Shown: positions 25,460 through 54,734 of the stretch, piece after piece
How the letters are laid out: every line of letters starts with the position of its first letter
How positions within the stretch are numbered: position 1 is the first letter of the stretch
NCBI GenBank assembly: GCA_050952645.1
Contig: JBMNLI010000015.1
Span: forward strand, 1 to 64,000
Reading direction: 5' to 3'
Origin: Bdellovibrionota bacterium
GTDB taxonomy: Bacteria; Bdellovibrionota_C; UBA2361; CAKMMH01
Length of the DNA: 64,000 nucleotides
Notes under the pieces: model-generated
The model's database searches: none
Told to the model about the DNA's origin: nothing
The model's input: only the letters and a program-made list of their open reading frames with translations
Made by a program: the position numbers and the translations under genes

Positions 25460-25513
25460 TATAAAAAACAAAATTTTAAAAAGAGCGTTTTTTAAAGGTA
25501 GGCTTTAATATAT

Positions 25514-25992: not shown

Positions 25993-26059
25993 GAAAACTA
26001 CTTTAAAAAATTTTAATAAAATTTTAAGAAAAATAAAAAATATTTGTTTATATAAAATT

Positions 26060-36800: not shown

Positions 36801-38020
36801 ATTACGGAGATACTACTGAAGGGAAAAAAGCTTGCTCAGAAGATAAACCAATATGTGAAAATGGAAGTTGCAAAAGCTGTCCAAACAATGAAATATACAA
36901 CATAAGCCAAATGAAATGTGTAGAGTGTAATGTAGATACGGATTGTAAAGACGGCTTGGTTTGCGATAAGGATAATAATAAGTGCGTAGATAAGCAAAAA
37001 GCAGTGATACCACTATTTAATTGTATAATCGATAATTTAGATGGAACCTACACGGCATATTTTGGTTATGAAAACCCTAATGCTGAGGTAATAAATGTTC
37101 AAGCTTGTTCAAATAAGCAAGGAGCTAAGAATATTATAAATAACACTACGACTTATTGTGAGCAACCTAGCGAGTTTGAGGTAGGAACTGTAAAGGGAGC
37201 TTTCTACGTTCCGTTTAGCCAAGGACAAACAGTATCGTGGACTTTACAAAATAATAGCGAGGCTGAAAAAACGGTTTCTGCAACTAGTGCATCTGTAAGA
37301 TGTGCACCGTTAGAGCCTTATGCTCAATGTATAGATAGAAATAAAGATGGCTCATATAAGGCACATTTTGGGTATACTAATAGAAATGGCTTTGAGGTTG
37401 AAATTCCAAATGGTTCTGCTAACAATTTATCGACTAATGAAAATGTTCAGCCTGAGCATTTTGTTGCAGGAAAAATAGATAACGCTTTAAGTATAGATTT
37501 TACAGAAAGTGCTACTTGGAATTTAGATGGAAACAAAGCTACTGCTACTAAGAAGACTAAACCTTGTATAGAGGTAAACTGCACTGAGACTTCAATAGTT
37601 CAAGCTAAGAAATCACTACATGGAGATGAGTTTGTAGAGATGCTTGAAGCTGAAACGGAAAGCTTACTTGAAGAATTAAATCCATTTCCTCAAATAAGAG
37701 ATATCGAAGCTTCGGCAGATAGAAGAATAAACAGAGCTGAGAAAAATAACGATACGATTAAAAAACTTGTCCTTAAGCTTCCAGATGTAATGTTTAATTG
37801 TGATAACGCAGATTTCTGTCCGCTTTACGATAATCAAGGAACATTAAACTTGATTGAAAGAAAGTTAAGAAAACTTCGTAGACAAGTTGGAAGAACGATA
37901 AGACAAAGAAACATCGATGAGAAAACCAGAACTAGACTTCTTAATATCAATGCCCAAATCTTGGCAGGAAAGATAAGCGCACTTAATTCGATCCCAAGAT
38001 TTGCTAATGATTGTGATTAA
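33869..38020 (+). CDS. Large secreted Cys-rich repeat protein A
   Basis: Signal peptide; CNNGKDDDGDGKIDDKDPEC putative metal-binding motif; 139-aa Cys repeats; two YxAxFGYxN modules; basic helical C-terminus. Confidence 0.85.
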   Translation: MKKINKVSNIFLLFLFSISFIGANVASATMTDNQAKRVENFGRSDLGSMYLFYALEKALADNGIATDLKCKYSSHPNKVPEVAYTAFGLDINNANDKASLEALLNNSTFPYCSSEFTRNMYVGKSVAANDETADEFCKAMGYEAYIAGSGQTSKYSSYGSELVVSYDTKSGNWKRATNGTHYITLTCGTTKCMKDDDCKESQYCAPNGTCVSFSNDYLAECNNGKDDDGDGKIDDKDPECKGFVGGTGYIDTILMNETQGQYKASCETYTMPKDGEILINLKDDDVAVIVKRKDDNKTVILAKSNDPFPFGSCAVSTPINQADANNKTNKRNGSLGQNDAIFYGRDGKLVAYFQADGHRTVPDKAWSPKYEDRKLRTVSLKAGDVVYLATRSDKTANSRNPNTIVRFQEPRNFRESVCDVNYGDTTSGKRVCSTLAKPVCSKGSCVACPASQVYNKTLKACVECISDTDCKSGQACQNNKCLDKYTCSKNTTTGKVVVNKNGVELTTKLDKCEGNKQYVYTCPSTTSVGTEIVVKETITNCKYGCDTKTKKCYDTECDANYGDTTSGKKACKTIAKPVCSDGSCVGCPNSEVYSEDKKSCVACVVDGDCAKGQVCQNNKCLNKYTCSKNTTTGKVIVNKNGVELTTKLDKCEGNKQYVYTCPSTTSVGTEIVVKETITNCKYGCDTKTKKCYDTECDANYGDTTSGKKACKTIAKPVCSDGSCVGCPNSEVYSEDKKSCVACVVDGDCAKGQVCQDNKCLDKYTCSKNTTTGKVIVNKNGVELTTKLDKCEGNKQYVYTCPSTTSVGTEIVVKETITNCKYGCDTKTKKCYDTECDANYGDTTSGKKACKTIDKPVCSDGSCVGCPNSEVYSEDKKSCVACVEDSDCEAGQVCQDNKCLDEYTCAKDDTGKVVVKKNGVEITAKSKTDKCENDKQYEYTCSATTLVGTEITVKETITNCEHGCNSETKKCNDAECDVNYGDTTEGKKACSEDKPICENGSCKSCPNNEIYNISQMKCVECNVDTDCKDGLVCDKDNNKCVDKQKAVIPLFNCIIDNLDGTYTAYFGYENPNAEVINVQACSNKQGAKNIINNTTTYCEQPSEFEVGTVKGAFYVPFSQGQTVSWTLQNNSEAEKTVSATSASVRCAPLEPYAQCIDRNKDGSYKAHFGYTNRNGFEVEIPNGSANNLSTNENVQPEHFVAGKIDNALSIDFTESATWNLDGNKATATKKTKPCIEVNCTETSIVQAKKSLHGDEFVEMLEAETESLLEELNPFPQIRDIEASADRRINRAEKNNDTIKKLVLKLPDVMFNCDNADFCPLYDNQGTLNLIERKLRKLRRQVGRTIRQRNIDEKTRTRLLNINAQILAGKISALNSIPRFANDCD
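35287..36570 (+). repeat. About three near-identical 417-bp tandem repeats in protein A
   Basis: Near-identical antisense ORFs at 35393, 35810 and 36227 (offset 417 bp); degenerate partial copies on both sides. Confidence 0.9.
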
Positions 38021-38067
38021 ATAATATTATAATTAGAAATCGAAAAGAAGTTTAGAAAAATTAAAAG

Positions 38068-38124
38068 AGACTAGCTTGCTTAAAGTTTTTAGATTAGACT
38101 TTTTAAGTGGCTAGTCTTTTTTTT
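38068..38124 (+). terminator. Probable intrinsic terminator after protein A
   Basis: agactagc...gctagtct stem followed by a T-run. Confidence 0.6.
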
Positions 38125-38257
38125 ATTTATTTATTATTTATTGCTTAGTTTTGTTTTTTTTAAAATAAACATCTATCGTTATTAGTAAAATTTCTGGTAA
38201 AATAAGCCTTGTGAAATAAGATTTCTTTTTTGAGCATTTTATTAAGGTTTATTTTAT

Positions 38258-41200
38258 ATGAAAAAAATAAATAAAGTATCTAATATATTCTTATTATTTT
38301 TAGTTGCAATAAGTTTTTTAAGAGTAAATGTAGCTAATGCAACGATGTCTACATCCGAAGCTAAACACACCGAAAGTTTCGGAAAAAGCGATTTAGGTAG
38401 CATGTATTTATTCTACACGCTAGAGAAAGCGCTTATAGATAAAGGCATTGCAACCGATTTAAAGTGTAAGTATAGTTCTCACCCTAACAAAGTTCCTGAG
38501 GTCGCATATACTGCTTTTGGATTAGATATAAATAATGCTAATGATAAAGCTTCGTTAGAAGCACTTCTTAATAACTCTACTTTTCCTTATTGTTCTTCAG
38601 AGTTTATTAGAAATATGTATGTAGGTAGAAGTGTAGCGGCTAATGATGAGACGGCAGATGAGTTTTGTAAAGCTATGGGCTACGAAGCGTATATCGTAGG
38701 TTCTGGGCAAACATCTAAATATAGCTCATACGGTAGCGAGTTAGTGGTCTCTTTCAATGTTAATAATTCTAAATGGGAATTACTTCCTAAAGCTAAAGAT
38801 AACAAAGGGACTCATTATATTACCTTAACGTGCGGAACTACAAAATGTATGGAAGATGATGATTGTGAAGGAGGACAAGTATGTAAGCAAGGTGAGTGTT
38901 TAGATGTATACACTTGTTTAAAAGATAAGGCTGGCAGGGTAGTCGTTAGCAAGAATGGTGTAGAGCTTACAAAAGAGGTAAAAACCGATAAGTGTGAAAA
39001 CAATGAACTATACATATATAGTTGTGTAGTAGATAGACTAATAGGCTCAAAGATAGTAATAAGTGAAGAAAAGACCGTTTGCGAGTATGGTTGCGATAAC
39101 AAGACTACGCAATGCTATGCTACAGAGTGTGATGTAAATTATGGTGATACTACGGCAGGTAAAAGGGCGTGTCCTACAATAAGTAGACCCATATGTAATT
39201 GCGATATCGGTCAGTGTAAAGCATGCTCAAATAATGAAATATATAATGAAGCTAAATTAAAATGTGTAGAGTGTAATAAAGATGCAGACTGTAAAAATTC
39301 TGCTAAACCATTTTGTAATTTAAATTTATGTCAAGCTACTTGTAAAACGGATGCACAGTGTAAGGCTAAAAATTTAAGCAGGCAAGTTTGTAATAATGGA
39401 GTTTGCGTAGAGTGCGTTGCCGATAGCGATTGCCAAGGAGGGAAAGTTTGTAAAAATAATAGTTGCTTAGATAAATATACTTGCGTAAAAGATAAAACGG
39501 GTAAAGTGTCTGTTTATAAAAACGGTGTAGAGTTAGAAACGGAAGCAAAAAAGGATAAGTGCGTAGACGATGCACTCTTTATATATAATTGCTCTGCTAC
39601 TACTTTAGTAGGTTCAAAGATAGTTGTAAATGAAGAAAAGACAGTTTGCGAGTATGGTTGCGATACTGAAACTAAAGAATGTTATAAAACCGAATGCGAT
39701 GCAAACTATGGGGATAATGTAGTAGGGAAAAGAGCTTGCAAAGTGCTTTCATCTCCAGTTTGCGAAAATGGAAATTGTGTAGCGTGTCCTAATAGTAAAG
39801 TTTATAACTCTGCTAAAAAATCTTGCGTCGAGTGTAATACGAATGCGAATTGTAAAGAAGAAGCAAGGCCTATATGCTTAAGCGATAATACTTGTGGTTG
39901 CAGTGTAAACGATGATTGCCCTTCGGCTAGGCCAGTTTGCGAAAATAAAAATTGCGTAGCGTGTCCTAGTAGTAAAGTTTATAACTCTGCTAAAAAATCT
40001 TGTGTCGAGTGTAATACGAATGCGAATTGTAAAGAAGAAGCAAGGCCTATATGTTTAAGCGATAACACTTGTGGTTGTAATGTAAACGATGATTGCCCTG
40101 TAGATAATCCTTTTTGTAATACCGCTATACATCAATGTACTAATAAATGCGTTAAAAATGTAGATTGTAAAAATAAAGATTTAAGCAAACCAGTTTGCGA
40201 TAATGGAGTTTGCGTAGAGTGCGTTGCCGATAGCGATTGCCAAGGAGAGAAAGTTTGCAAAAATAATAGTTGCTTAGATAAATATACTTGCGCAAAAGAT
40301 GATGCAGGTAAAGTGTCTGTTTATAAAAATGGTGTAGAGTTAGAAACGGAAGCAAAAAAGGATAAGTGCGTAGACGATGCACTCTTTATATATAATTGCT
40401 CTGCTACTACTTTAGTAGGTTCAAAGATAGTTGTAAATGAAGAAAAGACAGTTTGCGAGTATGGTTGCGATACTGAAACTAAAGAATGTTATAAAACCGA
40501 ATGCGATGCAAACTATGGGGATAATGTAGTAGGGAAAAGAGCTTGCAAAGTGCTTTCATCTCCAGTTTGCGAAAATGGAAATTGTGTAGCGTGTCCTAAT
40601 AGTAAAGTTTATAACTCTGCTAAAAAATCTTGCGTCGAGTGTAATACGAATGCGAATTGTAAAGAAGAAGCAAGGCCTATATGTTTAAGCGATAATACTT
40701 GTGGTTGCAGTGTAAACGATGATTGCCCTGTAGCTAATCCAGTTTGCGAAAATGGGAGTTGTGTAGCGTGCCCTAATAGTAAGGTTTATAACTCTGCTAA
40801 AAAATCTTGTGTCGAGTGTAATACGAATGCGAATTGTAAAGAAGAAGCAAGGCCTATATGTTTAAGCGATAACACTTGTGGTTGCAGTGTAAACGATGAT
40901 TGCCATGCAGATAATCCTTTTTGTAATACCGCTATACATCAATGTACTAATAAATGCGTTAAAAATGTAGATTGTAAAAATAAAGATTTAAGCAAACCAG
41001 TTTGCGATAATGGAGTTTGCGTAGAGTGCGTTGCCGATAGCGATTGCCAAGGAGAGAAAGTTTGCAAAAATAATAGTTGCTTAGATAAATATACTTGCGC
41101 AAAAGATGATGCAGGTAAAGTGTCTGTTTATAAAAACGGCTTGGAGATAACGGTAAAATTAGATAAGTGTGAAAACGATAAGCAATACGTATATAGCTGT

Positions 41201-43234
41201 GAGAGCGATACACAACTAGGCTCTGAGATATTAGTAAGAGAAGAGATGAATAGTTGTGAGTATGGTTGCGATAGTAAAATTAAGAAATGTAATGCAAAAG
41301 AGTGTGATGTAAGCTACGGAGATACTAGAGCAGGCAAAAGAGCTTGCATTGCTACTAAGCCAGTTTGTGAAAATGGAAGCTGTAAAAGTTGTAAAGACTA
41401 TGAGATATATAATAAAGAGCTATTAAAATGTGTGGAGTGTAATGTTGATGTAGATTGTAGAGATAAGGCTAAGCCATTTTGTAATTTAAATTTGTGTCAA
41501 GCTACTTGTAAAACAGATACGCAATGTAAAAATATAGATGCTAGTAAACCCGTATGTGATACTGCGTCAGGTTTATGCGTAGAATGCACTAGTAGTAATC
41601 AAACACAATGTAAAGAGACTAAACCTATATGCTTAAGCGATAATACTTGTGGCTGTAATGTAAACACTGATTGCCCTGTAGCTAATCCTTTTTGCTTAGA
41701 TAATAAAGTTTGCGTAAATAAATGCTCTAAAGATGCTGATTGCTTAGGCGATACTCCCGTATGTGATACTGCGTCAGGTTTATGCGTAGAGTGTGTTAAG
41801 AATGAAGATTGTAAAGAAGAAGCTAAGCCTATATGCTTAAGCGATAATACTTGTGGTTGTAATGATAGTAGTGTTTGTCCTGAAGACTTGCAATTTTGCT
41901 CAGATAATAAAGTTTGCGTAGAAAATTGCACTAGCGATGAAGAATGCAGGGCTAAAAATGAAACTAAACCTGTATGTAATGATACGACTGGAAAATGCGA
42001 AGAATGCGTGACGGATGTAGATTGTGATGGGGAGCGAGTGTGTAGTATAGATACTTATACTTGTGTAGAGTGTAAAGAGGATAAGGATTGTAAGGACGGG
42101 AAAGTATGCAACCTTGATACTAATACTTGTGTAGAATGTAATAAAGATGATGATTGCAATGGAAATGCTGTTTGCGATAAAGATATTTATAAATGCAAAG
42201 ATACGCAAAAAGCAGTGCTTCCTATATTTAATTGTGTAATTGATAACTTAGATGGAACTTACACGGCATATTTTGGTTATGAAAATCCTAATGCAGAGGT
42301 TATCGATATTCAAGCTTGCTCAAAGACTAAAGGAATTATAAATACCATTAATGACACTACTACTTTTTGCGAGCAGACTAGCAAGTTTAAAGTTGGAACT
42401 GTAAAAGGAGCTTTTTATATTCCATTTAATAAAGGACAAACGGTATTGTGGACTTTGCAAAATAGTAGCGAAGCTCCAAGAGTAGTTTCTGCTACGAGTG
42501 ATGCGGTAAGATGCACGCCATTAGAGCCTTATGCGCAATGTATAGATAAAAATAAAGATGGCTCGTATAAGGCGCATTTTGGGTATACTAATAAAAATGG
42601 TTTTGAGATTGAAATTCCAAATGGTTCTGCAAATTATTTATCGACGAAAGAAAATGTTCAACCTGAACACTTTTTTGTAGGTAAAATAGATAATGCGTTA
42701 AGCATAGATTTTACTAGTAGCATTACTTGGAATTTAAATGGAAAAGAAGCTACTATAACTAAAAAAACAAAGCCTTGTGTCGAGGTTAATTGCACCGAAA
42801 CATCTCTTATTAAAGTTAAGCACTCACTACACGGAGATGAGTTTGAGGCGATGCTTGAAACGCAAACTGAAAGCTTACTAAAAGAAAAAAAGCCTTTTCC
42901 TTTTATAAGAGATATTGAAGCTTCGGCAGATAGAAGAATAAATAGAGCTAAGAAAAACAACGATACGATTAAGAAGCTTGCTTTAAGGTTTCCAGATATA
43001 ATGTTTAATTGTGATAATGCAGATTTTTGTCCGCTTTACGATAATCAAGAAATATTAAATTCTATCGAAAGAAGATTAAGAAAACTTCGTAGACAAGTTG
43101 GCAGAACGGTTAGACAAAGAAATATTGACGCAAAGATTAGGACTAAACTTCTTAATAAAAACGCACAAATTTTAGCTAGCAAAATGGATATACTTAACTC
43201 TATTCCAAGGTTTGCTAACGATTGCGAAAGTTGA
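38258..43234 (+). CDS. Large secreted Cys-rich repeat protein B, paralog of A
   Basis: Shares the ~190-aa N-terminal domain and ~340-aa C-terminal region with A; different repeat core. Confidence 0.85.
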   Translation: MKKINKVSNIFLLFLVAISFLRVNVANATMSTSEAKHTESFGKSDLGSMYLFYTLEKALIDKGIATDLKCKYSSHPNKVPEVAYTAFGLDINNANDKASLEALLNNSTFPYCSSEFIRNMYVGRSVAANDETADEFCKAMGYEAYIVGSGQTSKYSSYGSELVVSFNVNNSKWELLPKAKDNKGTHYITLTCGTTKCMEDDDCEGGQVCKQGECLDVYTCLKDKAGRVVVSKNGVELTKEVKTDKCENNELYIYSCVVDRLIGSKIVISEEKTVCEYGCDNKTTQCYATECDVNYGDTTAGKRACPTISRPICNCDIGQCKACSNNEIYNEAKLKCVECNKDADCKNSAKPFCNLNLCQATCKTDAQCKAKNLSRQVCNNGVCVECVADSDCQGGKVCKNNSCLDKYTCVKDKTGKVSVYKNGVELETEAKKDKCVDDALFIYNCSATTLVGSKIVVNEEKTVCEYGCDTETKECYKTECDANYGDNVVGKRACKVLSSPVCENGNCVACPNSKVYNSAKKSCVECNTNANCKEEARPICLSDNTCGCSVNDDCPSARPVCENKNCVACPSSKVYNSAKKSCVECNTNANCKEEARPICLSDNTCGCNVNDDCPVDNPFCNTAIHQCTNKCVKNVDCKNKDLSKPVCDNGVCVECVADSDCQGEKVCKNNSCLDKYTCAKDDAGKVSVYKNGVELETEAKKDKCVDDALFIYNCSATTLVGSKIVVNEEKTVCEYGCDTETKECYKTECDANYGDNVVGKRACKVLSSPVCENGNCVACPNSKVYNSAKKSCVECNTNANCKEEARPICLSDNTCGCSVNDDCPVANPVCENGSCVACPNSKVYNSAKKSCVECNTNANCKEEARPICLSDNTCGCSVNDDCHADNPFCNTAIHQCTNKCVKNVDCKNKDLSKPVCDNGVCVECVADSDCQGEKVCKNNSCLDKYTCAKDDAGKVSVYKNGLEITVKLDKCENDKQYVYSCESDTQLGSEILVREEMNSCEYGCDSKIKKCNAKECDVSYGDTRAGKRACIATKPVCENGSCKSCKDYEIYNKELLKCVECNVDVDCRDKAKPFCNLNLCQATCKTDTQCKNIDASKPVCDTASGLCVECTSSNQTQCKETKPICLSDNTCGCNVNTDCPVANPFCLDNKVCVNKCSKDADCLGDTPVCDTASGLCVECVKNEDCKEEAKPICLSDNTCGCNDSSVCPEDLQFCSDNKVCVENCTSDEECRAKNETKPVCNDTTGKCEECVTDVDCDGERVCSIDTYTCVECKEDKDCKDGKVCNLDTNTCVECNKDDDCNGNAVCDKDIYKCKDTQKAVLPIFNCVIDNLDGTYTAYFGYENPNAEVIDIQACSKTKGIINTINDTTTFCEQTSKFKVGTVKGAFYIPFNKGQTVLWTLQNSSEAPRVVSATSDAVRCTPLEPYAQCIDKNKDGSYKAHFGYTNKNGFEIEIPNGSANYLSTKENVQPEHFFVGKIDNALSIDFTSSITWNLNGKEATITKKTKPCVEVNCTETSLIKVKHSLHGDEFEAMLETQTESLLKEKKPFPFIRDIEASADRRINRAKKNNDTIKKLALRFPDIMFNCDNADFCPLYDNQEILNSIERRLRKLRRQVGRTVRQRNIDAKIRTKLLNKNAQILASKMDILNSIPRFANDCES
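39394..41140 (+). repeat. 807-bp tandem repeats with nested 177-bp sub-repeats in protein B
   Basis: taatggagtttgcgtagagtgcg at 39394, 40201 and 41008; ccagtttgcgaaaat at 39755 and 39932. Confidence 0.88.
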
Positions 43235-43351
43235 TAAAAGAAAGTTTAAAAGAGGGGTTAGTCTTTTTTTAAATATTAACTATTTTAAATAAATATTTAT
43301 CATAGTATACTATGAGTTGAGTTTCCAATTTTTTATAAAGGAGATTTTATT

Positions 43352-43732
43352 ATGGATAATCCTCAAGATTATAAATATACTAAAGAGCATCAATGGGTAG
43401 CGATAAAAGGCGATACGGCAATTATAGGCATTACAGATTATGCTCAATCTGAGCTAGGTGAGATAGTTTTTATTGAGCTTCCAAGTGTTGGGGATAGTAT
43501 TAAAAAAGATGCTGTTTTATGCGTTGCTGAGTCTACTAAAACTGCTTCAGATGTTCACGTTCCAATCTCTGGAGATATCGTAGAGGTAAATGAGGAGTTA
43601 GAAGATAATCCTAGTTTAATAAATAAAGATCCTTATAAGAGCGGTTGGATAATAAAAATAGCTAACTTTAGCAAAAGCGAGTTTGAAAGTTTAATGTCTA
43701 CCTCTGAATACCAAGCTTACATAGCTCATTAA
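43352..43732 (+). CDS. gcvH: Glycine cleavage system H protein
   Basis: YTKEHQW; GITDYAQSELGEIVF; ESTK lipoyl site; NKDPY..GW. Confidence 0.95.
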   Translation: MDNPQDYKYTKEHQWVAIKGDTAIIGITDYAQSELGEIVFIELPSVGDSIKKDAVLCVAESTKTASDVHVPISGDIVEVNEELEDNPSLINKDPYKSGWIIKIANFSKSEFESLMSTSEYQAYIAH

Positions 43733-43897
43733 AAATTACCTCTGGCTAAAGCTTTCGTCAATTTTATTTTAAGCTATATTAAACTTAAAGAACTTTTAAA
43801 AGGTGTTGATGTTAATATAAAATTTTCTAAAAAAGATTAAAGTTATCCTTAGGTTTTTCGAGTAAATTTATATTGACATTAACAAAAAATATTATTT

Positions 43898-45331
43898 TCA
43901 TTCTTGTAATCGTCTAATTCTCTTATTTATTATATAGCCCACATAAAAAATAATAAGCGGAAAAATAAGGGCACTTAATGATGATATTATAACAAGATCT
44001 TCTATATTATGTAAGTTCGAATAAATACTTAGGGGAAGTGATAAGAAAATAGCACTACCAATAGCAAAAGGAATAGCAATTGGTAATGACAGTTTGCCAA
44101 ATAATGTTAATATTGTTGGAAAAAAGCCTGCAGCTCTAATGGTTCCTATTATGAAAAACATAGCTTTTAAATTGGGTTTTAAAAATGCTATGATTGTACT
44201 TATGATTGCGATTGAAATTATGAAAAGGCGAGAAATATTTATAGCAGATAATTTCTTATTTTTTTTGAGGTAGGTTTCATAAATATCAACATAGCCTATA
44301 GAACATGTTGCACACAATGCTGAGTCTATCGTAGAGCACAACCCTGCTAAAATCGTAATGCAATAGAATGAAATAACGAATTTCTCAAATAGAGAACTTA
44401 TTACAATACCTCCTATTAGTTGCTCATCATTTAGCAATATTTTTCCAGATCTGAAAAGTTCTACACCGATATATCCTAATAATGAGAGTGCAAAAGGGAC
44501 AATTATATACATTAATGATGCCGATAAAAAAGATTTAGTTACATTGTTTTTATTACTGCCCATAACACGTTGAAAAAACATTTGGTCAGTAATTGGTCCT
44601 GTCCATAGCGTTATAAAAGAAGGAATAGCAAAATATTTAATGGTGTTAATATCTAATAAATTGATATTGTTGTGTAATCCTCCAATATTATTGCGAATGG
44701 TTTCAATTCCACCAGTTTTGTATATGGCAATAGGGATAATGATAATAATAAAAGCATATATAATTATCATTTCAAAACAATCTGTTATTATAGAAGCTTG
44801 AAAACCACTAATTAAAGAATAGGCTGTGGTGATTGCGATTATAAGCAATATTACGACATTTGTATTAATCCCAGTAAGCATTGATATTAGCTTTGCTCCA
44901 ATTACTGAATTTAAGACGAGAGCTGTTATCTGACATAGTAAAATTAACAATATATATGTAAAATGGACTGTCGTGTTATTTTTATATTTTTTTCTCATAA
45001 ATTCAGCGAGCGTATAGCCATATGGTAAGTAATTTTTAAATTTTTGTGCAAAGAATATGTAAATATAAAAACATGTAAAGTTCGGTAATAAAAACCAAAA
45101 TACTCCTACATATCCAGATGTAAATGCTTGAGAAGAAGATAAGAAAAGAGCTGGCCCCCATATCCAAGTCGCCGCTATACTTAACCCATTAAATATCCAA
45201 GGGACACTTCTGTTTGCTACTAAAAATGTATCAATATTAAAATTTTTTACATTGAAAATACACGTAATAAATATATTTGACAGCGCAAATATAGCAAATA
45301 CTATGTATCCATCTATTTTTGAGAGAAACAA
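43898..45331 (-). CDS. Sodium:solute symporter (SSS) family transporter
   Basis: FLVANR..SIAATWIWGPALF; YSLISGFQASIITD; DQMFFQR; AGLCSTIDSAL; many TM helices. Confidence 0.88.
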   Translation of the reverse strand: MFLSKIDGYIVFAIFALSNIFITCIFNVKNFNIDTFLVANRSVPWIFNGLSIAATWIWGPALFLSSSQAFTSGYVGVFWFLLPNFTCFYIYIFFAQKFKNYLPYGYTLAEFMRKKYKNNTTVHFTYILLILLCQITALVLNSVIGAKLISMLTGINTNVVILLIIAITTAYSLISGFQASIITDCFEMIIIYAFIIIIIPIAIYKTGGIETIRNNIGGLHNNINLLDINTIKYFAIPSFITLWTGPITDQMFFQRVMGSNKNNVTKSFLSASLMYIIVPFALSLLGYIGVELFRSGKILLNDEQLIGGIVISSLFEKFVISFYCITILAGLCSTIDSALCATCSIGYVDIYETYLKKNKKLSAINISRLFIISIAIISTIIAFLKPNLKAMFFIIGTIRAAGFFPTILTLFGKLSLPIAIPFAIGSAIFLSLPLSIYSNLHNIEDLVIISSLSALIFPLIIFYVGYIINKRIRRLQE

Positions 45332-45339
45332 GGCGACCT

Positions 45340-45996
45340 TTAAATTCTAATAGGGAAAATATTATTTACATATCTTTGAGCCATGATCATAATTTTTAAG
45401 TAATACCCAGATATAAAAACTCGTTCTTTATATAAATTAAAATCTTTTTGTGAAATTTTTCTTGTATCTTTTGTATATTTATTATTTTCAAAAATTTTTC
45501 CATCGATATCTACATATTGCTTCTTGTCAAAAAATAATAGAATGGCGTCGTTTATATTTAATTCAAATATGCCATATACCTCACCTATCTGAAGGTTGAA
45601 ATCGGTCAAAACACTCTGCGTGTTAGCCATAAATACATTACAAAATTCGTAATTTTTATAATTATGACTAGTATATATGTTTCGAAAGACTCCTAAAAAC
45701 TGCTTGTCTGATAAGATTATATTTTTTCCAAGTTCTTCAGTAAGTTCTCTAAAGCCATCTTCTGGAGTTTCACCTGACATTAAATGTCCACTCGCAGATG
45801 CATCAAAAGTATTAGGACCAATTCTATTTTTGGAACCTCTGAGTTGGATATAAATAATATTTTTTTCTTTATTTATTAACCAACAAGCAAATGTTTGATG
45901 CCATAGACCTTTTTGGTGAACATTGTCAATAGATGCTTGATAGGGGGCAATTTTGTTGTACATTTCGTCAAATATGTCTATTTCTTCCATACACAT
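45340..45996 (-). CDS. Nudix hydrolase (IDI/YfcD-like)
   Basis: HQKGLWH; GHLMSGETPEDGFRELTEELG Nudix box. Confidence 0.85.
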   Translation of the reverse strand: MCMEEIDIFDEMYNKIAPYQASIDNVHQKGLWHQTFACWLINKEKNIIYIQLRGSKNRIGPNTFDASASGHLMSGETPEDGFRELTEELGKNIILSDKQFLGVFRNIYTSHNYKNYEFCNVFMANTQSVLTDFNLQIGEVYGIFELNINDAILLFFDKKQYVDIDGKIFENNKYTKDTRKISQKDFNLYKERVFISGYYLKIMIMAQRYVNNIFPIRI

Positions 45997-46125
45997 TTCT
46001 TTCTTTGTATATTTTTTATTTATATTTTCAATAAATTAAAAGTATTTTTTCAATAATGATTGATAATATTTCTTTTTTTGTACAAAATCAATATGTAATT
46101 TTTAAAAATTTTGAGGATAATAAAA

Positions 46126-47808
46126 ATGTTGTTTGATAATAATGTCGTACATAAAAATAATTATGCATTTGATGATTTGTCAAAATGGAAAATTATAAAT
46201 TATAGGTCAATTAACGATTTAATAACTGCAGAATTTCTTCACGATTTATACAACCAAGCTGAACTACAGATAAATCCTGTTCGTTTTAGAAATACAGTAT
46301 GTGTGATTGAAAATGGTGGTTTTAAAAGTTATGCACCAATTGTTGAATGGGAAGCTATGGCAAAAATTTTAGGGAATAATTTAATAATGAGCCAATCATT
46401 AAGAGAAAAATTTTCAGATTACCTAGAAAGACCACAAGCTGAGCTATTGGAATTCATTGAAAAATTAGAGAAACGGTATGTTATAGAAAAAAACAACATT
46501 TCAAAAGAAGAAATATTTTATGATTTATCTCAACTTCATTTTTTAGCTTTAAATCAAATTTATGCGATTAATTTAGTTCAGTTTGAACATGCTTTAGATT
46601 TCGCAATAAAAAAAATTAATGATAGTAAACATTTAAATTGGAATGATTTATTGTTTACAACTTCATTAACAAAAAGCGGTGAAGAGAAATTGCGAATGCT
46701 GGAATTATCTTTAGATATAACGGATAAGAAGTTATCATTTGACGATGCGATTGCAATTTATAATAATGAATTTTCATTTTTATTTTGTGCATATGGTGCA
46801 AAAGTTTTTGATTTTCAAAAACATTCAGAAAAAAAAATGCATGAAATATTGGATACAAGTGTCGATGAGAGAAGAAAGCAAATAGAAATTATAAAAAATA
46901 AAAAAGAAAGCATAGTAAAAAGTAAGGACTTGTCTTTACTTAATTCGCTAGCTGATTTAGCTACTAAACTTGCTACTCGTCGAGATAACAATAAAGCTCT
47001 AATGGGTAAAGTTGCAAAACTAAGAGCGTGTATATTAGATACCATACAAGTATTAACAAATATAAATCGTCAAGAACTAAATTTTTATTTTTTAAATGAT
47101 TTATACAATCTTTTAGTGGAGGGGAAAAAACTTTCTAGTGATATAATAAAAAAAAGAAGTGGAAGAATCGTATTAAAACGCGAAGAAAAAGTTTTATATC
47201 AAAGTGAAGCTATAAAATTATCTGAAGTTATATTATCCAAACATAACTATACTGACAGTCATTATTTAAAAGGAGAAATAGCAAGTGGCGGGAAAGTTCG
47301 AGGTTATGTAAGAAAGGTATTAAATATGATGGACGCCATGAAGATAGCTCCTAATGAAATATTGGTTGCTTATGGAACCGATTTTGATCTAATCACTGGT
47401 CTACAAAATTGTGCTGGAGTTGTTACTGAAGAAGGAGGGATTTTAAGTCATGCATCTGTAATATCAAGAGAGTTGTCAAAGCCTTGTTTAATAAATGTAG
47501 AAGATGTTATGAGTATATTGCAAAATGGATGGTTTATTGAATTAGACGCAGATAATGAAAGGATAAAAATACTTAAAACAAATAAAGGTAATGAAAGCAA
47601 ATTGCAACTTTTATCTAATATTCCAATGCAATTTATCAAAGGGGAAAAAGCGAAAAATTTAAGAATATTGTCTGATAATAATATACCAGTAATGATGGGT
47701 TTTTTGATTGATGTATCTTCAGAAATTAATTTGATAAATGTGGCACAAGAAATTGTAATGCGACTTCTTCCTAAATTTTCATCTTGTATAGTAAGAAGCA
47801 TTCTTTGA
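46126..47808 (+). CDS. Dikinase-like protein, 5' part: helical domain + phospho-His swivel domain + start of the ATP-grasp domain
   Basis: GEIASGGKVRG..EILVA..T..GVVTEEGGILSHASVISREL.KPC; GEKAKNL; ends inside the VRS motif. Confidence 0.85.
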   Translation: MLFDNNVVHKNNYAFDDLSKWKIINYRSINDLITAEFLHDLYNQAELQINPVRFRNTVCVIENGGFKSYAPIVEWEAMAKILGNNLIMSQSLREKFSDYLERPQAELLEFIEKLEKRYVIEKNNISKEEIFYDLSQLHFLALNQIYAINLVQFEHALDFAIKKINDSKHLNWNDLLFTTSLTKSGEEKLRMLELSLDITDKKLSFDDAIAIYNNEFSFLFCAYGAKVFDFQKHSEKKMHEILDTSVDERRKQIEIIKNKKESIVKSKDLSLLNSLADLATKLATRRDNNKALMGKVAKLRACILDTIQVLTNINRQELNFYFLNDLYNLLVEGKKLSSDIIKKRSGRIVLKREEKVLYQSEAIKLSEVILSKHNYTDSHYLKGEIASGGKVRGYVRKVLNMMDAMKIAPNEILVAYGTDFDLITGLQNCAGVVTEEGGILSHASVISRELSKPCLINVEDVMSILQNGWFIELDADNERIKILKTNKGNESKLQLLSNIPMQFIKGEKAKNLRILSDNNIPVMMGFLIDVSSEINLINVAQEIVMRLLPKFSSCIVRSIL

Positions 47809-48986
47809 TGGAAGATTTAAAGTTTCAATCAATGGCAGGAAACTTTGAATCTATTATATGTCAATTAGAAGAAGCGGCTGTTCTTAAGGCTATTCATGAA
47901 GTAGTGGCATCTTATGATACTCCTAAAATAGGAATGTTGCCTAGAATAAAATCAAGTTCTGTATTGGTTCAACCGTATTACAAGCAAATAATTGGTGGCG
48001 TGGCTTTTTCGCATAATCCAGTTAATGGAAGGCGAGAATTGATAGTTGAATCTAGTAGTTTAGGGGCTGATGCTGTTGTGAATGGCAAATCTGAGAAATT
48101 AGTTATACCAAATGTAGTTTCTCAAGAATTAAAAAAGTATATGGAAAAAATTGAGAAAATATTAAAATGTCCAATAGATGTAGAATGGGGGTATGGTGAT
48201 GATGGAATAAAAATATTTCAAGCACGTCCAATAGTTTTTAAAAATAAAATGGCGAGAATGGATAATAAGAAAAGGTTATTAGTAATTGCTGGTGGGCAAG
48301 GCAATAGAATTAAGAAAATGTTTAATACAAGCAATATTCCTTTTACCAAACATGTACTGCCACTACCGACAAATGGTAGAAATGTAATTGGTGCAATTGT
48401 TGATAGGGCAAAAAAATCATTTAGCAATGTAGATATAATTGCAAGTGATTCTACTATCCCATTTTTTACTCCATTGTTTGAGCAAGAAAATAATTTAAAA
48501 ATTATAAATGACCATAAAATGTTCGGACCTCTCTATTATCCTTTTATATACTTAATAAAAACAAAACAAAGAGTGTATGCTTGTTGTGGAGACATATATA
48601 GCGATTTCAATTGGGAAGATATGGAAATTTTTCATAATAAACATGCAGGTTGTGTAACAGCATTAGTTTCTAAGAGTTTTCCTACGCAGAATGCAGCTTG
48701 TTTTGAAATTGATAGTGATAGCCGTATTGTAAAATATACAAGAAGAGAAAATTCTGAAAAAGACCTGATAAATATTGGTGCTTACATCTTTGATTGGTCT
48801 TCAAGCTTATCTGAAATAATAAAGGAACTAATAATAAATAAAAATTGTAAAGAAGATTTGTTTTTTAAAAAATGCATAGATTACAATATATTATATGGTT
48901 ATACTACAAACGAATTATCTTGTAACATAAACACACCAGAAACTTATAATAGCCTTATTGATAAATTAAAGATGGCAAATTTCTAA
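47784..48986 (+). CDS. 3' part of the frameshifted fusion: PPDK-type ATP-grasp domain + NTP-transferase domain
   Basis: ED..SMAG.FES; VLVQ..GGVAFS.NP; DVEW..IFQARPI; then IAGGQGNRI..KHVLP..GD..INIGAYIF..NINTPE. Confidence 0.8.
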   Translation: MYSKKHSLMEDLKFQSMAGNFESIICQLEEAAVLKAIHEVVASYDTPKIGMLPRIKSSSVLVQPYYKQIIGGVAFSHNPVNGRRELIVESSSLGADAVVNGKSEKLVIPNVVSQELKKYMEKIEKILKCPIDVEWGYGDDGIKIFQARPIVFKNKMARMDNKKRLLVIAGGQGNRIKKMFNTSNIPFTKHVLPLPTNGRNVIGAIVDRAKKSFSNVDIIASDSTIPFFTPLFEQENNLKIINDHKMFGPLYYPFIYLIKTKQRVYACCGDIYSDFNWEDMEIFHNKHAGCVTALVSKSFPTQNAACFEIDSDSRIVKYTRRENSEKDLINIGAYIFDWSSSLSEIIKELIINKNCKEDLFFKKCIDYNILYGYTTNELSCNINTPETYNSLIDKLKMANF

Positions 48987-49002
48987 ATTTCTGTTTTTTA
49001 TG

Positions 49003-49203
49003 TGAACTACACTCAATATTTTGGACGTGAAATTTCGTGTATTTGAAAATCTAAATAAAATAAATTATAAATTCAGGACTTATTCCTCTATGGGGTTGTG
49101 CTAACACAACCTTATAGAGGAAGCGAAAATCCCACAACTATTGATTATAAAAACTAGCTTCCATTTCATTAGGTGTTAAATAGCCTAGTGAACTGTGTGG
49201 CCG
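49003..49203 (-). mobile_element. IS3-family (IS150-like) right-end remnant
   Basis: Minus strand reads RPHSSLGYLTPNEME..stop; tgaactacactcaatattttggac resembles IS150-type IRs. Confidence 0.65.
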
Positions 49204-49307
49204 CTAGCGGATTGTCAAATTAAACTAGACACTTTTTGTTTTAAAAAAGTGCCACTGTGATATACTCTAACAAAATTGTTTATTTATTATTAAAAGGAGT
49301 ATATCAA

Positions 49308-49535
49308 ATGGCACACAGACATCTTACCATAGATGAAGTAATTTATATAGAGCGTTATCACAAAACTAATACAAAAGTTAGTGAAATATGTGAAATTATG
49401 GTTCGTTCACGGTAAACGGTTTACAATGTTATTAACTTTTTAGAGTCTGGTGGTAATGCTACAGAATATTACGATAGATATAAAGCGAATAAGAGTAGGT
49501 GTGGAGCTAAAAAGAAAACACTAGTTTTTGTTTAA
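49308..49535 (+). pseudogene. IS30-family transposase 5' fragment with an internal stop
   Basis: MAHRHLTIDE..RSR*TVYNV..EYYDRYKANKSRCG; RBS aaggag; TAA at 49413. Confidence 0.75.
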
Positions 49536-49562
49536 AAATTTTTAAAATTTTTGTAAAAAAAC

Positions 49563-50507
49563 TTAATTAAATAAACATGTTAGGGAAAATATAATATTAG
49601 GAAATCTAAATATAAAATTAGTTTTTCGATGTAGACTATATAAAAAATGGGAATTTAGGTAACGTCTTGCAATCGTATCATTTCTTTGCTCTACGTGTGA
49701 ATTATCATTAGATTGATATTCTCTCGATCTTGTTATAATTATAGGCTCCCTTCCACGTTCTAGCCTTTCTTCATTAAGATATTTAAGCATATGTGTATTA
49801 AGCATTTCAGTTCCATTGTCCGAATCATAACCTTTCAAATCAAATGGTAAACCATCTTCTATATCTTCAAACACTCTTACAATACCAAGAGAGCCTTTTC
49901 CATAAGTACACCTAGCTTCTGTCCATAATGTATTTATATCTACAGATGTAAAGCTATAAATAAATTCTCCAGATAAACTACCACCACAGTGTGCAACTGT
50001 GTCAGCTTCAATATGTCCAGGTATCTTTACATCCCATATATTTTTTTGCACAGGTATCTCTTTTCTAAAAGTGCTAGGACGTGTAGTGCTTTTACCCTTT
50101 AGTCCTTTGTATTCCTTTAGTATTCTATCTATTGTAGCTCTACTAACAGATAGTAATAAAGCACGCACTTCTTCATCATATTTTACGCCCATATATTCCT
50201 CAATACTTTTAACCCAAACTTTCATATCTGCTTTTAGTATTCCAGAACACGAATAGTCGTGAAGCTTCCAAATTTCCTTTAATGCCTTTTTAAAATCTTC
50301 TCTTTGATAAATACCTTTCCTACCAACCCTCTTAGGTTTTAAAGGTCTACCTTGCTTCCTTGGCTTAGTAAGTCTTATAGCTTGACGATAGCCAACACCT
50401 AACTTTTCTTGAATTTCCTTTAAGACAGCTCCTTTACTTTTCTTGTCAAGTTTATGATAACGAGCCTTAATCGAATTTAAATATAATTCTCTTTCATACT
50501 TTTCCAT
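49563..50507 (-). mobile_element. rve-type DDE transposase (ISNCY-like), C-terminally truncated
   Basis: PGHIEADTVAHCG; DINTLWTE; DSDNGTE; SREYQSNDNSHVEQRN; repeated gtgacatct(a)attatgag.caa end motifs at 50549 and 50606. Confidence 0.8.
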
Positions 50508-50762
50508 AGACACCACCTGTATAATAAAAACACGGTTTATATATTTCAGTGACATCTATTATGAGCCAACGCTTCATTTTTTTAACATATTAGAATGACC
50601 ATTCGGTGACATCTAATTATGAGTCAAATCGAAAAAGCTCTTTTTATATTTTTAATTATTGACTTTTAGAGTAATTTTGTTAGTATACAAGGATATGATT
50701 TTGAAAAAAATCGTTTTTTATCATTAGTGATAATGTTATTAATGATAGATACTCTTTAATGG

Positions 50763-50838
50763 GGGCGCTTAGCTCAATTGGTAGAGCGTCAGCCTTACAA
50801 GCTGGGGGTTATAGGTTCGAGTCCTATAGCGCCCACCA
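50763..50838 (+). tRNA. tRNA-Val (anticodon TAC)
   Basis: GGGCGCT/AGCGCCC acceptor stem, D-arm, anticodon loop cttacaa, GGTTCGAGTCC T-arm, encoded CCA. Confidence 0.97.
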
Positions 50839-52305: not shown

Positions 52306-53308
52306 TTGAGAGATTTAAGTTTAAATATAAACCAAGGGGTAGCTAGTCAAGCTAGCGATGTAGAAAGATTAAAACAAATACAAGATAAAATAGTTGCTAT
52401 GACAAAAAGCTCAAGTGAGATTATAAAAACGCAAGAAATAAGCTAGTTTGTAATATAATAGTTTTAGAACAAGAGATAACTAGTCTCGAGGTCGTGACGA
52501 ATGTCGATAAGTCGTCAGACCGAAATATTAGTGATAAAATTAAAAAAGATTTTCCTAATACGGCTATCCTTTCTGAGGAAAGTGCCCCAGAAATTAGAGA
52601 TGAATTGTTTGCTGAAATGTTTTTATAGTAGATTCTCTAGATGGTTCAGGAAATTTTACTAATGGGCATAACTATTCTGCTGTGGCGATAGCTTATGCAG
52701 AAAAGGGCGAGGTTCTCGTTGGGGTAGTTCATAATCCTTTTGAAAATAAAATTTATACGGCTATAAAAGGTCAAGGTTCTTATATTCATGTGCTAGATAA
52801 AGATGGTGAAGTTGAAAATGTTTCTAAGCTTAAGTGCGTAAATTATAGTCCTTGCATAATGCCTGCGTGTGGAGCTTTTTACGATGAAAGGTCGTTTGAT
52901 TGTTTTTGTAATTTTATTAAATTGCTTTATAAATGGCGTGAGTCAAAAGATTTATCATTAGACTTAAGACGGCTTGGAAGTGGTGCTTTGAATATTGTGC
53001 AAATTGGAGAAGGGCGTTTTCATTTCTTTTTTGAAACTCCTAGACCTTGGGACGTTGCAGCATCGGTGTTAATCGCTAAAGAGGCTGGTGCCGTTGTAGC
53101 TCACTATCTTCCTAAAGAAAAAAATATTCCTCTTGATATGGATCCTTATGGAATATTTGTACGAACGCCTTTTATTTATAAAGAACTTGGAGAGCTTTTT
53201 TATCAAGCTTTTCTCCCTTTTGGGCAAGAAAGATACCCAGATTTGAATAATACAGAACTAGAGAAACTTTTCTTTGAAACTCGTTGGAATAGAGATGTTC
53301 GTGCGTAA
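52306..53308 (+). pseudogene. Inositol monophosphatase-family pseudogene, paralog of the next gene
   Basis: ERLKQIQ, ILSEESAP and DSLDGSGNF segments lie in different frames separated by stops; 3' part intact (PWDVAA). Confidence 0.75.
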
Positions 53309-53573
53309 ACGTATATGCTAATAAATGGTAGAGGGATAAAGTAATGTAGCACTCATAGGTAATACTTAGGCGTCTTATGAAGCTTAACTAAATAGAAAAT
53401 GTCTTGAAGTGAATCTTAATTTTTTAAAAAAAGCAATAAGTACAGAATAATGTTTCTAATAAGTAAAATATATTGCAGAACGATGTTTTAAATATAAGGC
53501 TAAAGTGATAAACTTCCGATTTGTGGATTTTATATAAGCTTTAAAAGCTTTTACTTAATTGCAGGAGGCAAAC

Positions 53574-54734
53574 ATGGATTTAGCAAGAGAAAACTATTAT
53601 AAAAAACAAGGGCAAGGCAAATTTAATCCTAGACAAAGAGGGGACAGTTTAGGTCAATATGAAATTAGAACTAGTGAAGATTTAAGAAGAGATGCTTTAG
53701 AGTTTGAAAGATTAAAAAACATACAAAAATCATTAATAAATATGGTTCATGGAGCAGGTGAAATAGTAGTAAAAATAAGAAATGAAGCCTTGGATTCGAA
53801 AGGGAGGGCGAGTAATAAAAATGTATTTAGTGTTTCATATAAGGATGAGACTGTAGGAAGGTCTGTCGTAAGTCAAGCAGATCTTCGTTCTGAAGAATAT
53901 ATTTTAGAAAAAATTAGAAAAAATTTTTCCAATGTTTATATCCTTTCTGAGGAAAGTGCTCCTGATGTTAAATCTGAATTATTTGAAGGAAATGGTTTTA
54001 TAATAGATCCTATCGATGGTTCAGGAAATTTTATTAATGGTATCGACTATTGTTTTATAGTGATAGCTTATGCCGAAAAAGGTGATGTTCTTACTAGTGT
54101 TGTTTATAATCCATTTAAAAAAGAAACTTTTACAGCGATAAAAGATCATGGTGCTTTCCTTCAATTTGAAAAAAATGGAGAAAAATTTGAAAAGAGTCTT
54201 CATTGCAAAGATGCTATCGAATGTATTATGCCAATATTCGGAGCTTATTATGATAGAAAATCAAGAAAATCTATTAATGACTTTAATGATTCGTTAATGG
54301 AGTGGAAGCCTAAAGTTTTATCTTTAAACATTTTTACTAAAAGATCTGGTGGTATAACAACAGAATGGAAGGCTAAAGAAGGATGTTCAATTGATGTGAG
54401 ACGGTTTGGAAGTGGTGCTGGAAATATAGCAGAAGTAGCCGCAGGGCGTTTTGATTGTTTTTTTGAGCATACTGCAAAACCTTGGGATGTTGCTGCATCG
54501 ATATTAATTGCTAGAGAAGCTGGAGCAATTGTTACTCATTATCTTCCATCGAAAAATGATGTGCCACGATGTATGGATCCTTATGGAATATTCGTAGGAA
54601 CTCCTTTTACCCACAATAGGTTTGCTAATTTTTTCCATAAAGCTTTTCTGCCCTATTGGAGAGAAAATTATCCAAATTTAAGCGATGAAGATCTTTGGGT
54701 TCTTTCTGTAAAACGTTGGTATGATACCTTGTAA
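53574..54734 (+). CDS. Inositol monophosphatase (SuhB-like) family protein
   Basis: ILSEE; IDPIDGSGNF; RRFGSGA; KPWDVAA; RBS aggagg. Confidence 0.9.
   Translation: MDLARENYYKKQGQGKFNPRQRGDSLGQYEIRTSEDLRRDALEFERLKNIQKSLINMVHGAGEIVVKIRNEALDSKGRASNKNVFSVSYKDETVGRSVVSQADLRSEEYILEKIRKNFSNVYILSEESAPDVKSELFEGNGFIIDPIDGSGNFINGIDYCFIVIAYAEKGDVLTSVVYNPFKKETFTAIKDHGAFLQFEKNGEKFEKSLHCKDAIECIMPIFGAYYDRKSRKSINDFNDSLMEWKPKVLSLNIFTKRSGGITTEWKAKEGCSIDVRRFGSGAGNIAEVAAGRFDCFFEHTAKPWDVAASILIAREAGAIVTHYLPSKNDVPRCMDPYGIFVGTPFTHNRFANFFHKAFLPYWRENYPNLSDEDLWVLSVKRWYDTL

Follow-up and report, generated by a model that had tools for sequence, protein, structure and literature searches.

What does a bacterium gain from a gene that joins a phosphohistidine kinase to a nucleotidyltransferase? 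The question is raised by a locus at positions 43898-48986 of a 64,000-nucleotide stretch (the window) of contig JBMNLI010000015.1, from the Bdellovibrionota bacterium assembly GCA_050952645.1. There, genes for a sodium:solute symporter (SSS) and a Nudix hydrolase are divergent from a gene that encodes, in order, an acceptor domain, a phospho-His swivel domain, an ATP-grasp domain, and a nucleoside triphosphate (NTP) transferase. The original prediction, made from the letters alone, read the locus as a self-contained pathway that imports a solute, phosphorylates it, and activates it as a nucleoside diphosphate (NDP) conjugate. Comparison with homologous loci places it in an unnamed family in which a kinase of the rifampin phosphotransferase (RPH) type is paired with one of two unrelated nucleotidyltransferases in every whole locus. 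The cassette family is real and conserved, is made up of known parts, and is apparently undescribed, and the cassette is mobile and scattered patchily over many unrelated, mostly small-genome bacteria.

A swivel kinase with an acceptor domain of the rifampin phosphotransferase type

Open reading frames (ORFs), Pfam, homologs, and folds all confirm the divergent layout, with SSS and Nudix genes on the minus strand and a four-module gene on the plus strand. The SSS gene (43898..45331) encodes 477 amino acids (PF00474, E 9e-28), and the Nudix gene (45340..45996) encodes a 218-residue, IDI/YfcD-like hydrolase (PF00293, E 3e-5; NF002995 and NF011922 below cut-off). The kinase gene is spread over two ORFs. 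Its 5′ half (46126..47808), with the acceptor, the His swivel, and the start of the ATP-grasp domain (PEP-utilizers, E 2e-16), begins at an ATG at 46126 after GAGGA; the ORF finder instead takes a TTG at 46111 (46111-47808, 565 aa), from which residues are numbered here. Its 3′ half (47784..48986; 400 aa, 59% identical to residues 558-955 of the homolog P0002) holds the rest of a minimal ATP-grasp domain (PPDK_N, PF01326, E 9e-18), ending near 48240, and then the NTP-transferase. By arithmetic, the opened frame from ATG 46126 encodes 953 aa, in agreement with the ~950 aa first predicted.

The kinase has 153 homologs, of which at least nine, among the 120 matches listed, are 941-971 aa long at 43-60% identity. 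Nine intact sequences have the order acceptor, phospho-His, ATP-grasp, NTP-transferase, with PEP-utilizers and PPDK_N recognized by Pfam in all nine and NTP_transferase in six. In an AlphaFold model of P0002 (nine sequences; mean pLDDT 74, pTM 0.43), residues 14-484 superpose on the rifampin-binding and His domains of RPH-Lm, residues 327-867 (Z 18.5, root-mean-square deviation 4.7-4.8, 401-406 residues aligned), and residues 491-714 on the ATP-grasp domains of PPDK and RPH (Z 19-21). Alignment to this model, together with conservation in 64 non-redundant members, places the acceptor domain at 46180..47193 of the window.

The swivel motif T/SxxGGxxxH described in PMC12167813 is satisfied by TEEGGILSH (47425..47451), whose His447, the predicted phosphocarrier, is invariant in 64/64 members. 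The whole His motif and R291-D292-x-x-K295 are invariant in the same set, and the invariant Arg precedes the His by 152-158 residues, against 159 in RPH, the distance there from the essential R666/E667 and K670 to H825 (PMC4844700). The ATP-grasp domain is of the PPDK_N type, with K22/R117/E297-type residues and G-x-K-A, V-R-S, D-x-E-W, and Q-x-R-P motifs. The superposition over ~400 residues (Z 18.5), being that of a model, suggests an acceptor fold like the rifampin-binding domain with an Arg/Glu/Lys phosphate site. Further acceptor-site invariants (N30, R32, Y47, N154, E159, and Y228) are all polar. RPH-Lm (PDB 5FBT/5HV1; PMC4844700) thus shares the superposed acceptor and His domains, R-[DE]-x-x-K ~158 residues before the His, and the ATP-grasp motifs, but the cassette kinase has its ATP-grasp after the His domain and shorter (~215 aa), carries a fused NTP-transferase, is 14% identical, and has a polar pocket where that of RPH is hydrophobic.

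Named families do not take in these proteins. The window halves score 40 and 26 bits against the Rph model NF041857, with a cut-off of 999, and the acceptor domain alone has no match to Rph in 29 members. Among NCBIfam models, PRK05849, taken as Cj1418-like from gene context, fits the ATP-grasp half best (E 4e-15), yet the score is 55.6 bits against a cut-off of 501, the domain order differs, and only 1/29 acceptor domains match it (E 4e-4). In the ESM Atlas, no named family was found for the acceptor-domain protein or for the GalT-fold protein discussed below, and in one cluster close to the acceptor domain 21% of the members carry Rph_4th. PDB sequence searches with an acceptor profile or a GalT-like profile gave nothing meaningful. 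Among 1.84 billion representatives, the acceptor-domain profile recovers 85 clusters (50% identity) at E <=1e-30 and 1,306 at 1e-3, with many ~480-aa and multi-repeat proteins in the weak tail. Variants include a second, divergent acceptor-domain paralog that lacks a His domain and lies close to the main kinase of one locus (L040:6761-7861), a 1073-aa kinase (P0281) in which an APH/choline-kinase-like C-terminal domain replaces the NTP-transferase, and a 700-aa member annotated in Staphylococcus saprophyticus (P0019).

The permuted domain order had been thought unprecedented, and it is not. Glucan water dikinase StGWD1 (PMC13553574) shares the order central acceptor, His, C-terminal ATP-binding domain; it is a plant starch enzyme with carbohydrate-binding modules and, in the accessible part of that source, no NTP-transferase, and the likeness noted is one of domain order. 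HpeHI, CreHI, and PpsAB (PMC12167813) keep an acceptor and His subunit apart from an ATP-grasp subunit, as do split members of the present family; they act on phenols in catabolism, the available text mentions no nucleotidyltransferase partner, and HpeH is 71 kDa against ~485 aa in the split members. On the agrocin 84 plasmid pAgK84 (NC_006277), a 467-aa acceptor and His gene directly precedes a 301-aa ATP-grasp gene, for which we infer the names AgnD1 and AgnD2 from the accessible part of PMC4530439. Nudix genes, a nucleotidyltransferase, and an aminoacyl-tRNA synthetase-like gene lie in the same cluster, but the AgnD1 acceptor has no hidden Markov model (HMM) or hhalign match to the family, and its nucleotidyltransferase is not matched by the cassette-transferase profile. 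Because the order is known from glucan water dikinase and the splits from HpeHI and AgnD1/D2, the permutation is not the novelty; the pairing with either of two nucleotidyltransferases is. No description of the kinase family, of its partner derived from GDP-mannose pyrophosphorylase (GMPP) or of GalT fold, or of a FusB-like link was found in the literature searched, which took in few subscription papers and no supplements; family members may be among the proteins of the RPH phylogeny and of the survey of TalE homologs (Fig. S31 of PMC6482885).

Two nucleotidyltransferases and a changing set of partners

The NTP-transferase domain (48258..48983) falls below the Pfam threshold in the window and is recognized by profile and by the fold of its homolog, P0002 residues 717-955 matching GMPPB at Z 20.4. 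The best profile matches are GMPPs (E 1e-14, for GMPPB, to 8e-12), and the next family, at 2e-4, is at least eight orders worse. The domain has the G-G-x-G-x-R, P-K, and G-P-L motifs and the SpsA-like fold of those enzymes; it lacks their E-K motif and C-terminal left-handed beta-helix, ends at ~240 aa, and scores 21 bits against a GMPP cut-off of 440. An invariant Arg occupies the position of the Glu in the F-V-E-K motif of GMPPs, a residue with a sugar-binding role.

Neighborhoods were scanned in 67 loci with DNA (57 from GTDB, 8 metagenomic, and 2 viral). Forty-four, window included, have an acceptor domain at E <1e-20, and 39 were kept as non-redundant: L078 equals L010, L081 is near L011, L083 and L084 equal L082, and L079 is a 1.5-kb fragment. 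Partners were scored within 7 kb of the kinase, and 35 loci are well covered, that is, all except L016, L021, L042, and L050. Hosts named for these loci include Rickettsiales and other Alphaproteobacteria, Saccharibacteria and other members of the candidate phyla radiation (CPR), Bacilli, Clostridia, Mollicutes, Myxococcales, and Aminicenantes. The GMPP-like transferase alone, fused or separate, occurs in 21/39 loci, a GalT-fold gene alone in 14, both in none, and neither in four, of which L016 and L050 are remnants and L042 and L082 are cut by a contig or flank end. This either-or pattern indicates that one of two unrelated nucleotidyl-transfer folds serves the second step. In CPR and other bacteria, the acceptor-His, ATP-grasp, and transferase modules are also encoded separately, by genes that lie side by side.

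The replacement gene encodes an unannotated protein of 300-440 aa with an invariant H-x-H. Its model (pLDDT 82) matches GalT at Z 9.3 and DUF4931 at 9.8, the top 11 Foldseek ranks listed are all GalT/Apa2-type, and the modeled duplicated HIT fold with its H-x-H points to membership of GalT/Apa2 in the HIT superfamily; an unannotated family gains a predicted function. No fusion of kinase and GalT-fold protein was seen among candidates of 787-2245 aa, which is weak evidence. The GalT-fold family is also present on 11 Streptomyces/Kitasatospora plasmid records.

The kinase and transferase might be chance neighbors on decaying islands, with the transferase not acting on the kinase product, and the several broken copies and widely varying partner genes fit such a picture. 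Fusion, fission, and strict either-or replacement speak against it, as do 25 control loci with weaker kinase matches (L050 is in both sets), which have the transferase once and the GalT-fold and FusB-like genes never, and chance is very improbable as an explanation. On a quick kinase tree, the swap requires 4-5 changes, and 4/4 independent pairs agree (p 0.125).

Other partners are variable. Among the 39 loci, a FusB-like zinc-finger gene occurs in 19, a histidine phosphatase in 18, cupins in 12, and an SsuA/TauA-like ABC (ATP-binding cassette) importer in 10 (NCBIfam E 9e-36, below cut-off). HIT genes are found in eight, sulfotransferase-like genes in seven (six of them with an amidino-hydrolase), ADI/DDAH-like genes in six, a P-loop kinase in five, and the window-type Nudix subfamily in four; three loci combine an alanyl-tRNA synthetase (AlaRS)-like fragment, L-amino-acid-ligase ATP-grasps, and a major facilitator superfamily (MFS) transporter. 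A phosphatase, HIT, or Nudix gene is present in 29/35 well-covered loci, with phosphatase and HIT never together, and the sulfotransferase module and importer are together in 0/35 (p 0.07, with kin not independent). The FusB-like neighbor is a zinc finger of the C4 treble-clef type (PF16571) with four invariant Cys in 20 sequences, and is the sole copy in both checked genomes that have one; FusB itself binds domain IV of elongation factor G (EF-G; PMC3352095).

Proposed pathway and competing readings

The preferred reading is that the intact cassette imports a small polar anion X, phosphorylates it, and makes an NDP conjugate, likely GDP-X, as a bioactive nucleotide or its precursor. It is put forward tentatively, at a confidence somewhat short of even, whereas its two-step core, X to X-phosphate to NDP-X, is very probable, and here the phospho-His kinase and nucleotidyl-transfer chemistry first predicted from the letters finds support in fusion, fission, and non-orthologous replacement. 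Fusion was seen in at least nine homolog clusters among the matches listed. After import of X, the ATP-grasp would load His447, turning ATP to AMP and Pi, as fold and residues suggest; the His domain would then swivel to the acceptor, where R291/D292/K295 would place the phosphate as R666/E667/K670 do in RPH. The GMPP-like transferase, or the GalT-fold enzyme where it is missing, would add a nucleoside monophosphate, as the gene pairing indicates. One hydrolase per cassette (Nudix in the window, histidine phosphatase or HIT elsewhere) may undo or finish the product and protect the host, and the FusB-like protein, absent in the window, would add target protection. For the single-polypeptide versions, one protein together with ATP, NTPs, and a pool of metabolites would suffice to test this chemistry directly.

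For X itself, a nitrogen acceptor (P-N bond; sulfamate- or amidine-type X) is favored over a plain sugar by analogy. PPDK-like genes have been proposed for N-P bonds in agrocin 84 and phaseolotoxin, as far as the accessible parts of PMC6482885, PMC4530439, and PMC11278893 go, and TalE (talopeptin) and Cj1418 (O-methyl phosphoramidate, MeOPN) are N-kinases (PMC6482885, PMC6429109). The tal cluster, compared by description only, shares a PPDK-like kinase, an ATP-grasp ligase, and an MFS transporter, and differs in that a glycosyltransferase performs its second step (PMC6482885). The mix of AlaRS-like, sulfotransferase, and amidino-enzyme partners recalls the ascamycin acm cluster, which has AlaRS-like, sulfotransferase, adenylylsulfate (APS) kinase, and amidinotransferase genes, with no PPDK-like kinase mentioned in the available text (PMC9113183). 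The reading offers a substrate lead for one branch of the orphan swivel kinases in CPR and DPANN microbes.

A candidate peptidyl-nucleotide antibiotic cluster (L011:1540-11860, L020:8750-18914, L082, and L108:5785-10146) was observed in Streptococcus sp. and Lactobacillus melliventris. It contains the kinase, an AlaRS-like fragment, two ATP-grasp ligases, an MFS transporter, an SsuA-like ABC system, and a GalT-fold gene, the last not seen in L082; L. melliventris is a cultured host in which a cluster of this kind is at hand. A kinase-less, Tn3-flanked partial cluster of this type lies on the conjugative plasmid pL15 of Sulfobacillus. In another locus (L080:3798-19740), the neighbors of a family kinase are two more genes for PPDK-like proteins, of 890 aa and 1027 aa, a gene for a TLC ATP/ADP transporter, and CysD/CysN-like, sulfotransferase-like, and ADI-like genes.

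Up to ~3 neighbors per cluster within the cassette regions, 137 in all, were scanned, and none is a glycosyltransferase or LicD, so a bioactive nucleotide is a likelier product than a donor for surface structures. The suggestion of a surface or nucleic-acid modification therefore finds no footing in these neighbors, in PADLOC (no match for 10 proteins), or in phages, where no full-length copy was found. An anti-phage system was set aside on the same PADLOC result, and phage-borne DNA modification on INPHARED matches at the level of the His domain only, with two weak viral loci. At >=80% coverage, no full kinase was found on plasmids.

The same absence of glycosyltransferases bears on salvage, in which a sugar or sugar acid taken up from a host or the environment would be phosphorylated at its anomeric carbon and turned into an NDP-sugar for envelope synthesis, as in the AmgK-MurU, GalK-GalT, and Fkp pathways. 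GMPP-like and GalT-like enzymes both turn sugar 1-phosphates into NDP-sugars, cupins accompany 12/39 loci, many hosts are small-genome, host-dependent lineages by their record titles, and the SSS family includes sugar importers. Salvage is nevertheless unlikely: the invariant Arg stands in place of the Glu of the E-K motif, the importers are SsuA/TauA-like or resemble urea-type SSS proteins, the cassette is patchy and often broken, and the FusB-like and AlaRS-like partners are left unexplained.

Those FusB-like partners are central to a second alternative, in which phosphorylation and nucleotidylation would inactivate a translation inhibitor that enters the cell, and the FusB-like protein would shield EF-G. 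The acceptor domain shares its fold with RPH, a resistance kinase, full-length FusB-like proteins occur in Bacillota loci (fusB model NF000340 at E 2e-9, far below cut-off), GNAT, HAD, and HIT genes are among the neighbors, and the setting is an island with insertion sequence (IS) remnants. Such a resistance function is doubtful, and a shade more so than salvage, since an importer belongs to the cassette in 11/39 loci, the hydrolases would reverse the inactivation, and the ligase and exporter genes of the L011, L020, and L082 type look biosynthetic.

The sulfotransferase-like genes could instead move an activated phosphoramidate, made by the kinase, transferase, amido/amidino-hydrolase, and P-loop kinase, onto a surface polymer, as in the MeOPN pathway of Cj1418 and Cj1416 (PMC6482885, PMC6429109), which shares a dikinase step followed by nucleotidyl transfer and an R-E-x-x-K helix that aligns. 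In three loci (L022, L027, and L041), the kinase and transferase are accompanied by an ADI-like hydrolase, a P-loop kinase, and two sulfotransferase-like genes. This set parallels Cj1418/1416/1417/1415, with the functions of Cj1416, Cj1417, and Cj1415 in MeOPN synthesis as background. However, Cj1418 has its ATP-grasp first and an acceptor not detectably related, and the cassette-transferase profile does not match its partner transferase. That partner is presumably LicC-like, by its motif. The full set is confined to 3/39 loci, the window has none of the extra genes, no capsule genes are among the scanned neighbors, and neither the acceptor profile nor the transferase profile matches the Cj1418-like loci L093-L101. 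Read from sequence, cytidylyltransferase, glutamine amidotransferase, and APS-kinase-like genes flank those loci; the cassette transferase is GMPP-like, and no glutamine amidotransferase is among the 137 cassette neighbors; in L101, the Cj1418-like kinase is fused to a nucleotidyltransferase-like N-terminal part. A MeOPN-like donor is improbable.

A further reading, about as improbable as the MeOPN-like donor, is that the cassette makes a natural, non-hydrolysable GTP mimic (GDP-NH-X, such as GDP-sulfamate) that jams ribosome-bound EF-G, with the FusB-like protein and the hydrolase as immunity. Pointers are the predicted anion-binding Arg of the GMPP-like transferase, FusB-like genes in 19/39 loci, repeated inactivation, and the exclusion between sulfotransferase module and importer, as if X were either made or imported. 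If true, the product would represent a new class of nucleotide antibiotic or abortive-defense toxin, and the occurrence of stand-alone FusB-like domains in bacteria unconnected with fusidic acid would be explained.

Several observations weigh against the bioactive-nucleotide pathway. Genes, break, homolog folds, and co-occurrence are direct observations, whereas every reaction is deduced from sequence, fold, and gene pairing. The enzymes nearest in fold or domain order, RPH, HpeHI, and glucan water dikinase, are O-kinases; the classical substrates of both transferase folds are sugar 1-phosphates, and cupins are in 12/39 loci. The acceptor domain has an hhalign probability of 0.75% with the Cj1418-like family and 0.3% with AgnD1, and nucleotide specificity follows from family likeness only. 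Most loci, window included, have neither exporter nor ligase, and the FusB-like gene is absent from the window genome (cassette-derived profile) and from 20/39 loci. The neighbor HMMs were built from these same 39 loci, so presence calls are partly by construction, and the independent-pair test has few pairs (p 0.125), its rows chosen for holding one of the two genes. On one Streptomyces plasmid (L109:9917-12745), a GalT-fold gene lies beside an adenylate-kinase-like gene, and no swivel kinase was detected.

An inserted island with a broken kinase gene

In the window, the cassette is horizontally acquired. It occupies an island (43733..50762) between gcvH (43352..43732, plus strand) and the 5′ side of tRNA-Val(TAC) (50763..50838, plus strand), and the distance from the gcvH stop to the tRNA is 7,030 bp in the window against ~113 bp in a genome of the same genus (G001). 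Among 41 genomes searched, a full-length kinase match occurs in the window genome (G000) and in none of 40 relatives, with weak, mostly His-domain-level matches in 11 others. A tRNA 3′ att site was rejected as the insertion point, as the island lies on the 5′ side and no flanking direct repeat is among the repeat families listed. Outside the island, cassette-derived profiles detected none of the usual cassette partners in G000, except one weak histidine phosphatase and one weak HIT match.

The kinase gene is broken by one missing base (47799..47800) in the conserved V-R-S-x-x-x-x-E-D motif of the ATP-grasp domain, near 47,800. A 7,090-nt contig from run X1, a possible source run, equals window positions 42500-48919 with no gap and is identical across the break, which is therefore not peculiar to the window assembly; an assembly error is disfavored on this ground, though X1 may be the source sample. 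In run X2, from another study, a 151-nt contig (depth 2.1) carries an additional base at 47799, with which the frame is open and reads the R-S-N motif present in 9/9 intact homologs; a 151-nt contig from run X6 matches the window allele, with only 15 letters left of the break, so that the site is barely spanned. X2 also lacks one base at 47565 and has two bases inserted in the SSS gene, each change on one contig at depth <5 and possibly an error. A programmed frameshift was discounted, as neither a slippery heptamer nor a long homopolymer is present in the sequence at the break. In natural split members, the division falls between the His and ATP-grasp domains, not inside the ATP-grasp, so the window copy is predicted to be non-functional as a kinase, and the working pathway first envisaged for this strain is not borne out. 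In all, 5/39 loci are broken (window, L016, L050, L025, and L034), and P0004 and P0234 stop just short of the transferase domain; such frequent decay fits an accessory, sometimes costly function. A screen of 80 genomes from the order of L016 found only two already known remnants.

Linkage of both minus-strand genes to the kinase had been proposed, and it holds in part. Nudix adjoins the kinase in the window, L009, L010, and L016, the last three copies being 48-58% identical to the window Nudix, and is linked in 4/5 fused-clade loci for which DNA context is available; the fifth is a 44-aa remnant. The SSS gene is not a core component: it is present in 0/67 scanned loci, nor was it found beside the kinase in five genomes with kinase homologs, and other members have an SsuA/TauA-like ABC importer or none. 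Close homologs of the window SSS protein (47-68% identity, some labeled urea-proton symporter by JGI) fall in clusters whose longest contigs, in 9/18 cases, equal in size those of fused-kinase clusters; the matches span four separate cluster pairs and contigs down to 6,588 bp, against 0/88 for distant SSS proteins. This indirect evidence suggests that SSS and fused kinase share a contig as a trait of one sub-clade, a match hard to obtain by chance.

The three IS remnants noted beside the kinase were found downstream of it. The first (49206..49539, plus strand) is a multi-copy end with an HTH_38 fragment (E 0.028, weak) bearing an in-frame stop, and is presumably IS30-like. A second IS end (49534..49662) is 96% identical to a piece beside a transposase on contig C10 that we take to be ISL3-like. 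The third is a 330-aa IS481-like integrase/transposase ORF (49563..50570, minus strand; NF033577, E 1e-4, below cut-off), whose 3′ end overlaps the second remnant and of which fragments lie elsewhere in the genome. A short palindromic element extends from 49083-49122 to 49206, and runs X2 and X4 skip 49084-49205 and carry a different 25-nt filler, so the right end of the island differs between strains. Two islands with the fused cassette (L009 and L010) also have HEPN/Toprim, IrrE-like peptidase, ParB-methylase, and recombinase-like genes, and L010 has a cyclodipeptide synthase upstream.

Elsewhere in the window, two inositol-monophosphatase-family ORFs (52616-54734) are missing at the same position in G001 and therefore mark a second insertion. 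Positions 33869-43234 encode a tandem pair of giant Cys-rich paralogs, of 1383 aa and 1658 aa, which have internal repeats and begin like signal peptides, the first matching only a Dumpy DPY module. A promoter scan gave 51 sites against 35.6 +/- 6 in shuffles, and an Rfam scan of the window, L009, L018, and L022 found tRNAs and a group II intron only, with no riboswitch or leader RNA. The intron (58292-60103) carries a reverse transcriptase/maturase ORF, and contig C16 of G000 has, in six-frame translation at ~24000-26500, regular short repeats resembling a CRISPR array.

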